Shown here piece by piece: positions 8,174-56,151 of a stretch of 64,000 nucleotides of DNA (position 1 is its first letter; each line of letters starts with the position of its first letter). A program made the position numbers and the translations under genes. The notes beneath the pieces were generated by a model. The model searched no databases. It was not told where the DNA came from and was given only the letters and a program-made list of their open reading frames with translations. The DNA is from Octopus sinensis (lineage: Eukaryota): assembly GCF_006345805.1 (NCBI RefSeq), contig NC_043003.1, forward strand, positions 20,026,001 to 20,090,000, given 5' to 3'.

Positions 8174-8579
8174 TTTTTTTTCAGAATGAGATAAAAAAAC
8201 CCAAGGCTGTGAAGATTTTAGAACATTTATAAATAGGTCTTACAGCTGTTTCCAGGATATTTATTATAATCCTTCATCAGAGACAGTGTGAGAAAATGGT
8301 GAAGTAATAGTTAATTTATATAAGATACGAAATAGAAAGTGAAGTGGAGGAATGAAAATAGACGTGAGATATGCAGGGATATTGCATTTATTTTCATTCC
8401 TCGACTTCACTCCCTATTTCGTACCTTATCTAACTTAACTATTGCTTAACCATTACCTCATACCGTTTCGGATAAAGGGATATAATAAATATCCTGGAAA
8501 CAGCTGTAAGACCTATTTATAAATGTTCTAAAATCTTCACAACCTTGGTTTTTCTTTATCTCATTCTGAAAAAAAAAAA
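8174..8579. mobile_element. Fold-back element (~190-bp arms) carrying hammerhead ribozyme motifs, Penelope-like
   Basis: 8174-8360 pairs imperfectly with 8389-8579; hammerhead motif in each arm. Confidence 0.8.
8237..8284 (-). ncRNA. Type I hammerhead ribozyme (minimal, palindromic loop 3)
   Basis: Minus strand GTCT-CTGATGA-AGGAT(TATAATAAAT)ATCCT-G-GAAAC-AGCT-GTA-AGAC. Stem I GTCT/AGAC, stem II AGGAT/ATCCT, cleavage triplet GUA. Confidence 0.8.
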
Positions 8580-17288: not shown

Positions 17289-17742
17289 AGTAGTTGAATG
17301 AATTATCTTATTATGGATAATTCGGTTAACCGATACCTGGGTAGCAAATTCACGTCAGAAAAACACGGTTGAAGCTACATGCCTAGGGCAGAGATCACGT
17401 GCTATCGTGTGGAAATTTGTGTGTTTTTTTAAATACGAATAAATGAAAGAATGGAGTTGAACTACGAATTAACAAAATTCCTTTATTTTCGACATATGTT
17501 TCGAAGGCTGCATATTCCTAATTTCGAAGAAATAAGGGGTGCATTATGCCGCCTTCTCATCAGGAAAAACAAGGAACTTATGTCAGCATCAAGATGCACA
17601 AAAACTTTTAGATAACTGCCCACACGGAGCCCATAGCGAAATTAGGAATATGCAGCCTTCGAAACATATGCAGCCTTCGAAACATATGTCGAAAATAAAG
17701 GAATTTTGTTAATTCGTCGGTTCAACTCCATTCTTTCATTAT
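17289..17742. mobile_element. (TA)n-flanked hammerhead element with partial inverted duplication (same family as 55065-55608)
   Basis: High identity to 55065-55413. The inverted partial copy at 17638-17741 includes an 18-bp tandem duplication (17648-17683). Confidence 0.85.
17478..17576 (-). ncRNA. Type I hammerhead ribozyme with extended stems I and II
   Basis: Minus strand TTCCTTGTTTTTC-CTGATGA-GAAGGCGGCATA...TATGCAGCCTTC-GAAAC-ATAT-GTC-GAAAATAAAGGAA. Canonical core, 11/12-bp stem II, 11/13-bp stem I, GUC cleavage site. Confidence 0.88.
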
Positions 17743-20800: not shown

Positions 20801-22068
20801 TTAGGTTGTTCTGAAAATAATGGCCGCTCTAACTGTTGTGTTTTGAAACGCAATTTTATCATATTATCTTAATTACGTTTAAGGTGAATTTCGACATACT
20901 TAACAATTGATGTATGCTCTTTAATACTTTTCTACTTATTTTAGACAGAACACATTCTTGAAGCATAGGCGCTCTTAATTATGAATATGACAAAAAAGGA
21001 TCTTCGCTTAGTTTTCTTGCATGATTTCAAGCACAATGCCTCTCAAACTGCTGCCAATATTAATAGAGCATGGGGAGAGGCGTGGATAAGTGATCGCACA
21101 GTACGAAGGTGGTTTCAGAAATCCCGTAATGGTGATGAGAGCCTTGAAGATGAAGAAGGTAGAGGACGGTCATGCAATCTTGACAATGAACAATTGAAAG
21201 CAATTGTCGGACAAAACCAACTTCAAAGTATTGGAGAAATGTTTCAGGCACTTGCTGTCGGTATTGCAACGGTCTCACGCAATCTGCAGAAGATTGGTAA
21301 GGTGAAAAAGCTCGATAAATGGGTACCGCTCAATGAAAATCAAAAAGTTCGGCGGTTTGAAGTGTGCTCGATGCTCTTTTTGCAAAACACCAATGATACT
21401 TTTTTGACCGAATAGTCACTTGTGAGGAAAAATGGATCCTTTATGATAACCGTAAACGATCAGGCTGATGGATTGATCGTGAGTCCTCCAAACATTTCCC
21501 AAAGCCAAAGTTGCATCAACAAAAGATTATGGTGACTGTCTGGTGGTCTTCATTTGGTGTTGTCCATTACAGCTTTCTGAACGCCAATCAGAGCTTTACA
21601 GCAGAGGTTTACTGCAATCAAATCGCTGAAATGCATGCTCACTTACTAAAAATGAGACCTGAATTGGTGAATCGGCATGGCCCAATTCTGTTCCACTATA
21701 ATGCAAAGCCACATGTTGCAAGAATGATGCTGCAGAAACTCACAGACTTGGCATACGAGACTTTACCACATCCTCCATATTCTCCTGATCTTCTACCCAC
21801 TAACTACTATTTTCTTAAGCATTTAAACACGTTTTTAAGTGATAAAACTTTCAGGTTGAAACCAACAGTGGAATCAGCTTTCAAAGATTTCTTAGCATCA
21901 AAGCCAATAAGTTTTTATCAACCAGGCATAAATATTCTCGTTGATCGATGGCAGAGATGCATAGATGTTCACGGTTCATACTTTGATTAATCAAAACATT
22001 TCTATTGTCAATTTTTCCAGAATAAAATTATGTTTCTGAAATCGTCCATTATTTTCAGGTCAACCTAA
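20801..22068 (+). mobile_element. Full-length mariner DNA transposon (Hsmar1/cecropia-like), inactive
   Basis: TIRs ttaggttgttctgaaaataatggccg (20801-20826) and cgtccattattttcaggtcaacctaa (22043-22068), 23/26 match. TA target duplications at 20799-20800 and 22069-22070; length 1268 bp. Confidence 0.95.
20981..21990 (+). pseudogene. mariner transposase pseudogene (DD34D family)
   Basis: HTH region (TVRRWFQK..GDESLEDE..GR), KWVP, RIVTCEEKWILYDN, HYNAKPH, HPPYSPDL and RWQRCIDVHGSYFD. Frameshift near 21400 and in-frame stop near 21466. Confidence 0.93.
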
Positions 22069-54998: not shown

Positions 54999-55055
<57 letters not shown>

Positions 55056-55252
55056 ATATATATAAGTAGTTGAATGAATTATCTTATTATGGATAATTCG
55101 GTTAACCGATACCTGGGTAGCAATTCACGTCAGAAAAAACACGGTTGAAGCTACATGCCAAAGGCAGAGATCACGTGCTTTCGTGTGGAAATTTGTGTGT
55201 TTTTTTAATACAAATAAATGAAAGAATGGAGTTGAACGACGAATTAACAAAA

Positions 55253-55351
55253 TTCCTGTATTCTCGACATATGTTTCGAAGGCTGCATATTCCTAATTTC
55301 GAAGGAATAAGGGGTGCATTATGCCGCATTCTCATCAGGAAAAACAAGGAA
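55253..55351 (-). ncRNA. Type I hammerhead ribozyme (left arm)
   Basis: tcatcag 55332-55338, gtttc 55273-55277, atat 55269-55272 and gac 55266-55268. Confidence 0.82.
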
Positions 55352-55473
55352 CTTATGTCAGCATCAAGATGAAAAAAACTTTTAGATGACTGCCCACACG
55401 GAGCCCATAGCGATAATGGGCTCCGTGTGGGCAGTCATCTAAAAGTTTTTGTTCATCTTGATGCTGACATAAG

Positions 55474-55570
55474 TTCCTTGTTTTTCCTGATGAGAATGCG
55501 GCATAATGCACCCCTTATTCCTTCGAAATTAGGAATGCAGCCTTCGAAACATATGTCGAGAATAGAGGAA
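55474..55570 (+). ncRNA. Type I hammerhead ribozyme (right arm)
   Basis: TTCCTTGTTTTTC-CTGATGA(55487-55493)-GAATGCGGCAT...ATGCAGCCTTC-GAAAC(55546-55550)-ATAT-GTC(55555-55557)-GAGAATAGAGGAA. Confidence 0.82.
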
Positions 55571-55603
55571 TTTTGTTAAATCGTCGTTCAACTCCATTCT
55601 TTC

Positions 55604-55646
<43 letters not shown>

Positions 55647-55648
<2 letters not shown>

Positions 55649-56100
55649 ACTTATAAACAAGGGCAAAAGAAACTAGACACATCATCCATAACCATATAAT
55701 TCATCACTATAAGCACACGTATCGAAAAAAGCCGACACAAATTTCTAAAAAATTCCGTTATTACCATATCGGACCCGATTTCAGAGTTAATCCATAAGAA
55801 CCTTCTCTTCGTCAGTAATAAATGCGACAAAGAAATAAATGAAATACTTATACCCATGGAAGAAGCAAACACTAAGTCATGAGCACAATTAAGTACCCCA
55901 AATTTCTGTCGGCTTTCTTCGAGATACGTGCTTATAGTGATGAATTATATGGTTATGGCCGATGTGTCTAGTTTCAGCACATTTGGCATTGAGAAATGTT
56001 TTTCTTTTGCCCTTGTTTATAAGTTGTTTATAAATTTAACCTTTAAAGGTATTTTCTAATATGCTGGGTATTGAAAAAAATGTTTTCGAAAAATTTTATC

Positions 56101-56103
<3 letters not shown>
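55647..56103. mobile_element. (TA)n-flanked fold-back element (arms ~55647-55744 / 55900-56026), same terminal family as 44575
   Basis: Inverted arms with an internal deletion in the left arm and a ~155-bp spacer. Confidence 0.78.

Positions 56104-56151
<48 letters not shown>

Follow-up and report, generated by a model that had tools for sequence, protein, structure and literature searches.

Head-to-head pLTR copies of a Penelope-like element as the probable origin of a hammerhead-bearing fold-back in Octopus sinensis

The 64,000-nucleotide stretch of Octopus sinensis DNA analysed here (the window) contains a fold-back that, together with its unpaired tail, occupies positions 55065–55608 and is inserted between two (TA)n runs. 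The arms of this fold-back are almost certainly pLTR pieces of a high-copy Penelope-like element (PLE) that encodes a reverse transcriptase (RT) followed C-terminally by a GIY-YIG endonuclease (EN) with Hydra-clade-like motifs. The locus as a whole is probably an ORF-less pair of head-to-head, 5'-truncated pLTR copies, primed from both ends of a break in the (TA)n repeat. The hammerhead ribozyme (HHR) motif is a passenger of the pLTR. A first-pass annotation, made from the sequence alone, had inferred that its RNA could either self-cleave or be locked in a long duplex. The hairpin exists as described there, yet it is no stand-alone RNA device; the annotation had missed that the unit consists of retrotransposon debris.

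The (TA)n microsatellites on both sides of the insertion target, to which no strand was assigned, extend over 55025–55064 (left flank) and 55610–55646 (right flank). Alignment of the reverse complement of the left part to the right part paired 55215–55408 with 55416–55609 over approximately 195 bp. The arms are separated by a loop of 7 nt (55409–55415) at the head-to-head junction, with 2–3 nt of microhomology at 55416–55418. This alignment confirmed the fold-back and the loop as originally described and revealed four differences between the arms: a 1-nt indel, a 2-nt indel, and two substitutions. The example of arm divergence that had been given initially, aatatgcag versus aatgcag, corresponds to the 2-nt indel.

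Positions within the repeat are given below as q, that is, the position along the reverse complement of 55065–55412; the reference copy used for the locus tables (L031) has a numbering that is one higher than q from q40 on. The left or 'tail' arm is a minus-strand pLTR copy (55065–55417), which begins at the predicted start of the transcript (q-4 = 55417), reaches the tail end at 55065 (q348), and is 96–97% identical to its best other genomic copies. It includes a 143-nt tail (55065–55207, minus strand) that has no partner in the right arm. The right or 'short' arm is a plus-strand pLTR copy (55416–55609) that begins at q5 and stops at the short 3' end (q about 199–205). The left arm begins at -4 or -5 and the right arm at +5. 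The tail arm contains the whole extent of the short arm (nesting), and their junction, which is identical to that at another locus (L132), forms a small hairpin. Both focal arms carry a G-to-T change in helix II of the hammerhead (55497 on the plus strand, matching 55328 in the left arm). This T was found in no other sampled arm, and G occupies the position in all 100 listed matches to a 24-mer described below. Also, the two focal arms disagree with each other at one column, where A and T are both frequent among family members (63 A / 52 T).

A search of the genome (G000, 2.72 Gb) for q returned 3341 first-look candidates, many of them with an inverted partner ending at q205. A 24-nt stretch reaching from the hammerhead core into helix II had 704 exact matches in G000, compared to none for the reversed control, which speaks against a chance occurrence. 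On the upstream side, longer copies of the repeat run into an ORF with an RT (YRDD) and a GIY-YIG-type end. In L061, an open frame of 645 aa with YRDD and a GIY-YIG-type end is contiguous with the pLTR; the N-terminal part of this ORF is interrupted by a frame change. We identified 33 protein relatives at E ≤ 1e-10; one protein relative, at 51%, bears the source label Octopus bimaculoides. The endonuclease motifs IYQC...FYIG, R, E, and N align with those of the relatives; the Pfam GIY-YIG match taken alone was sub-threshold (E 0.029). Of the 30 loci found via the ORF end, 29 continue into the HHR-bearing repeat (among these loci, L031 is the query locus and L045 a weaker match). The tail sequence continues into the ORF start in three near-full-length copies (L061, L069, and L081), which identifies the tail as the leader of the element.

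Several protein motifs place the family close to the Hydra clade. The copies L086 and L088 possess SDKT and RWL in one frame. The C-terminal endonuclease end reads CGVC..E...N...CMH and, as judged by eye, the internal CCHH is absent. The CxCX5C linker between RT and EN is absent in the copies read, and an Asn-rich stretch is present there instead. The 12 relatives (out of 33) that were included in the protein alignment have the RT, endonuclease, RW, and DKT motifs in common with the family, and in 11 of these 12, CxCX5C-type linker cysteines were found along with a C-terminal C..C/CxH end; these two features are the signature of the Hydra clade in the accessible text of PMC8557442. Because the linker is absent, we call the family Hydra-like and do not file it as a member of the Hydra clade. 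According to the same accessible text, this clade, including Hydra-1_Obim, shares with our family the CxxC...E...N...CxH EN end, DKT, an RW motif, the (TA)n target, and an HHR in the pLTR, and the Hydra-1_Obim protein resembles the ORF of the family motif by motif when compared by eye. Besides the linker, the family differs in having RWL rather than RWK, a body of about 3.5 kb, and an HHR unlike the one listed there for Hydra-1_Obim. Four motifs of the family gave no matches in the supplement text of PMC8557442, in which long sequence runs are interrupted. We also observed that L061 contains Asn-rich stretches between the RT thumb and EN, one of which replaces the CxCX5C linker, and yet the family targets (TA)n. 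This targeting without the linker is relevant to a proposal in the literature in which the linker directs the element to microsatellites.

The layout of family members was surveyed for the first 100 listed of the 704 24-mer matches (contigs 1–3, in position order), which represent 87 loci. The exact 24-mer filter favours young copies and counts loci with two HHRs twice as easily, so the fractions reported below are not genome-wide rates. At two loci made up of three pieces, the pairing was assigned manually. Head-to-head arms were present at 49 of the 87 sampled loci, and two whole hammerheads at 18. Of the 49 two-armed loci, 43 combine an arm that stops at the short site (q about 199–205) with an arm that stops at the tail site (q about 348), the two sites being approximately 143 nt apart; the remaining six have one atypical end. 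Neither short+short nor tail+tail pairs occurred among the 87 sampled loci. The probability of this 43:0:0 pattern under an even-odds null is about 1e-13 (binomial). All nine two-armed loci among the 30 loci found via the ORF end were short+tail as well. The other 38 sampled loci comprised 18 single short arms, 16 single tail arms, and 4 atypical cases. The (TA)n repeat adjoins 122 of 129 typed 3' ends, namely 64 of 65 in tail-ended and 58 of 64 in short-ended arms.

Two variants of this layout may be mentioned here. A second copy of the family in the window (17289–17740, minus strand) consists of a tail arm from about q4 and a short inverted arm (q123–196), with a local duplication at the arm junction. 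In L030 (934–2576), the whole short+tail palindrome unit is present as three tandem repeats about 550 nt apart.

We propose that the protein of the element would cut both strands in a (TA)n repeat and that each 3'-OH would then prime one cDNA, with the tail site used for one and the short site for the other, both being copied on RNA from the same source. By the logic of target-primed reverse transcription, cDNAs from the two 3'-OH ends of one break would form a head-to-head pair with the 3' ends outside. At the focal locus, both cDNAs would have run to about the 5' end of the RNA (the initiator-like A at q-4) and would have been joined via the 2–3 nt of microhomology. In support, the available part of PMC11167929 describes a purified PLE protein by which both strands are cut and extended, with synthesis initiated at two positions inside the RNA that bound the tail. 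Against the proposal, no difference in start site between the two strands was seen in vitro in that work. Extending the proposal to PLEs in general, we are slightly inclined to regard their inverted pLTRs as products of obligate twin priming, in which one dimer would use the two start sites asymmetrically, one per end of the double-strand break, on RNA from one source.

The principal alternative is that, within the same element, the second arm was copied from the first, either by snap-back of the cDNA at the small 3' hairpin or by self-priming on an antisense template. The latter reading of junction palindromes was proposed for rotifer PLEs (PMC3846280, available in part). We consider this origin unlikely, although the focal locus itself agrees with it in several respects: the short arm is nested, the junction consists of the 7-nt loop and 2–3 nt of microhomology, the junction of L132 is the same, and the private change is shared by both arms. 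Within the family, 19 of the 43 short+tail pairs are also compatible with copying of this kind, 13 being nested and 6 having ends within 10 nt of each other (nearly symmetric). The other 24 pairs, however, are non-nested; 13 of them do not overlap, and the other 11 have a short arm extending further 5' than the tail arm. Since neither arm contains the other in these 24 pairs, neither can be a copy of the other, which favours two cDNAs over a fold-back. In addition, the short end also occurs in single arms (18 of 87 sampled loci), which points to a start site in its own right, and copying of one arm from the other gives no reason for stopping at this site.

The junctions of the 43 pairs displayed an overlap in 23 cases, were blunt in 5, and contained a gap in 15. 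Sequence variants were compared at the 32 loci with enough arm overlap. Shared departures from the commonest letter of a column amounted to 0.021 per site within loci versus 0.006 between loci, and arm-to-arm differences to 0.031 per site within loci versus 0.064 between loci. This sharing counts in favour of the proposal, although the variants shared by the arms of one locus could also have resulted from conversion between the arms after insertion. The A/T-polymorphic column at which the focal arms differ speaks against two-end priming at this locus, as such a difference is not predicted by one RNA template. On the whole, we favour twin priming for the family and treat a fold-back as possible for the nested focal locus.

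The 5' ends of the arms are also informative. Between -45 and +75, 42 of 87 arm 5' ends fall in the interval from -6 to +5, where 8.6 are expected, and the neighbouring bins contain 6 and 6. Similarly, 45 of the 107 arms that start upstream of the core begin between -9 and +5. The mode of the distribution is -4 (nine arms), and the pile-up covers several sequence variants. Position -4 is the A of TCATT, which we take to be initiator-like; this A lies 29 nt downstream of a presumably TATA-like hexamer and 41 nt downstream of a presumably CRE-like octamer. We infer that the pile-up reflects run-off at the 5' end of the transcript, with a predicted start at q-4. Stalling of the RT at the mini-hairpin was considered as another cause and is less likely, because the mode at -4 is situated on the stem's far side. 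In four ORF-long copies, the upstream pLTR starts at q109, 142, 214, and 248 rather than at -4, and no extra cap-type G was seen at the 5' junctions of the sampled arms; for these reasons the start site is given here as a prediction. The arms in L135 and L162 that end at the cleavage C were not counted as hammerhead-cut ends, since slippage or deletion fits them as well. In L135 (1410–1470), the arm ends at the cleavage triplet and is followed by about 3.7 repeats of a 15-nt unit and then by (TA)n. This repeat could be due to reiterative copying at a cleaved RNA end or to simple slippage.

The sequence CUGAUGA...GAAAC-AUAU-GUC is present in type I order in both arms, at 55487–55557 on the plus strand and at 55338–55266 on the minus strand. 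The left-arm hammerhead (55247–55356, minus strand) has its core at 55338–55332, GAAA at 55277–55274, and GUC at 55268–55266. That of the right arm (55469–55576, plus strand) has its core at 55487–55493 and GAAA at 55546–55549, with predicted cleavage after 55557. Helix III is of the dimer type, with only 2 bp and a palindromic loop (AUAU in the right arm), and pair 4 of helix II is broken in both focal arms by the U.C mismatch to which the G-to-T change gives rise. Rfam hammerhead models showed no match at the gathering threshold or up to E=10. The matches to microRNA models obtained from Rfam up to E=10 were all below the cut-offs and were rejected, being expected of any long hairpin. The earlier description of full hammerheads on both strands is therefore correct with regard to the core in each arm but overstated in view of the 2-bp helix III, the helix II mismatch, and the lack of an Rfam match.

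In an alignment of 10 rows chosen by hand, among them the divergent relatives L005 and L045, 95.3% of the 170 cells in the three helices were paired, as compared to 34–48% when the pairing was slid. The covariation was modest: three pairs showed double changes, and 21 of 500 shuffles scored as high. The type I core is kept in both divergent relatives. Intact cores were also found in 64 of 70 arms picked independently of the 24-mer, after three duplicate loci had been dropped.

Metazoan type I hammerheads of the dimer type, as presented in the accessible part of PMC4209133, resemble the focal ones in the conserved core, the 2-bp helix III, and the palindromic 4-nt loop, and they have the same predicted need for a second sense copy or a protein. 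The focal helix II differs in being far longer and branched (52-nt insert), and helix I is long. The same part of that source reports that animal PLE HHRs with a 2-bp helix III need a dimer and cleave weakly as monomers; the anole PLE hammerhead needed protein (PMC11167929, available in part). The two focal copies are mutually antisense, so that a tandem dimer in cis is impossible. Given the 2-bp helix III and the shared helix II mismatch, only weak cleavage is predicted for an isolated focal arm. In folding predictions, the HHR fold has a share of about 0.001 and 0.0005 for the lone focal arms and 0.008 for a family-type copy.

The layout bears out the earlier remark that the sense ribozyme lies in the second arm whichever direction is transcribed. 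The read-through transcripts were predicted to fold with all of the sense core base-paired, at energies of about -382 and -369 kcal/mol; according to this model, read-through RNA would be locked in a duplex owing to the geometry of the insertion. The predicted upstream promoter elements are absent, and the RNA from the focal locus would therefore come mostly from host read-through and fold into the 195-bp duplex that locks the ribozyme. The idea that such RNA could either cleave itself or be locked agrees with this folding insofar as the core is paired, but a selected switch is unsupported, the cleaving state being weak even for a lone arm. The placement of the sense HHR in the second arm follows from head-to-head insertion and thus is no evidence of a selected cleave-or-lock switch. 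The locking appears to be a by-product and not a switch.

It might still be argued that the host has retained the locus as an RNA device, a bidirectional hairpin toggling between self-cleavage and a long duplex that feeds small-RNA or editing pathways. The two intact cores would suit such a role, as would the sense HHR, which invariably occupies the second arm and is completely paired once the transcript has folded. Several observations make it very improbable, however. The same two-HHR layout occurs at 18 of the 87 sampled loci, and intact cores are usual in this young family, as indicated by the 64 of 70 arms. Both focal arms have the helix II mismatch, and their predicted HHR-fold share is about 0.001 or less. 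Finally, no host coding exon was evident by eye among the window frames of at least 110 aa.

It is also highly doubtful that one (TA)n run received two separate insertions or that an inverted duplication took place later. The family is dense and targets (TA)n, with two copies in the window, but there is no (TA)n between the focal arms, the private change is common to both, and all 43 typed pairs obey the short+tail rule. An assembly or library fold-back chimera is extremely unlikely: no independent contig or read spans the focal locus in the contigs of four sequencing runs, but the arms show four differences, the outer ends are unequal and fixed in the family, the flanks show no mirror symmetry, many chromosomes carry the same layout, and contigs of run X16 (one run, possibly of the source sample) contain three arm-to-arm joints at other inner positions. 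The recurrence of the layout at 49 of 87 sampled loci upholds the first-pass annotation in taking the structure for a genomic one. A MITE or fold-back DNA transposon was rejected, as the outer ends are unequal, the inner ends vary, and the sequence is that of the pLTR of an RT element.

Other repeats in the surroundings deserve a brief description. The adjoining region (55646–56105) belongs to a different repeat family with 2515 first-look candidates, which also forms a head-to-head pair with unequal ends. A hammerhead-like motif is present in its left arm only (about 55775–55815, minus strand) and was found in 11 of 20 loci of this family. About 385 nt downstream in L186, there is a fragment of a Hydra-type ORF whose linker cysteines read CNC. 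An unrelated family within the window has a further hammerhead-like motif (about 8240–8280, minus strand), in which helix II is short and helix III palindromic. Hammerhead-like motifs of other families were also seen in locus flanks: L005 (1878–2010), L045 (3110–3182), L007 (809–843), L074 (357–392), L075 (642–676), L145 (903–984), and L178 (2702–2752). By eye, a LINE-type RT fragment was recognized in the window at 208–732 and a mariner-type transposase in two frames at 20969–21990.

The family shares many traits with EN+ PLEs as described in the accessible portions of PMC8557442 and PMC3846280: an HHR-bearing pLTR with TATA/Inr-like motifs, an inverted truncated 5' copy, a one-sided tail, a small palindrome at the head-to-head junction, a microsatellite target, and Asn-rich ORF stretches. 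An inverted 5'-truncated copy along with a tail at one end is considered typical of PLEs (PMC8557442; PMC8969392; both available in part). Our family differs in its tail of about 143 nt, while the tails given in these portions are 30–40 nt long, and in that many copies, the focal one included, are pLTR-only palindromes with no ORF between the arms. The Poseidon element of Anolis, PAc, belongs to another clade, and its start sites are 30–40 nt apart. It is similar in having two internal RT start sites bounding a tail, an AT-rich target, both strands cut and extended in vitro, and an HHR in the pLTR; the available part of the source (PMC11167929) draws no link from the two start sites to inverted copies. 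Non-LTR retrozymes (bioRxiv 10.64898/2026.07.22.740005, available in part) are likewise short non-coding PLE-derived units with a type I HHR, but theirs are arranged as head-to-tail tandems, whereas the focal unit is an inverted pair.

In open-access text, we found no published twin-priming model for PLE inversions, and PMC8557442, accessible in part, was the one clearly relevant paper on octopus Penelope hammerheads. Possible novelties are the strictness of the one-short-one-tail count, the occurrence of pairs without nesting, the tail length of 143 nt, and the absence of the linker.

Insertions like the focal locus number in the hundreds, and no function has to be invoked for it. The pattern displayed by its family bears on the question of how the inverted pLTRs and one-sided tails of PLEs arise, and both the 43:0:0 rule and the existence of 24 non-nested pairs argue for priming at the two ends of a break. 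If twin priming is indeed obligate, head-to-head inversions and one-sided tails would be explained without an antisense template, and the 143-nt tail would make the one-short-one-tail rule testable genome-wide. If transcribed, these insertions would provide the octopus genome with a large supply of perfect RNA duplexes of 100–200 bp.
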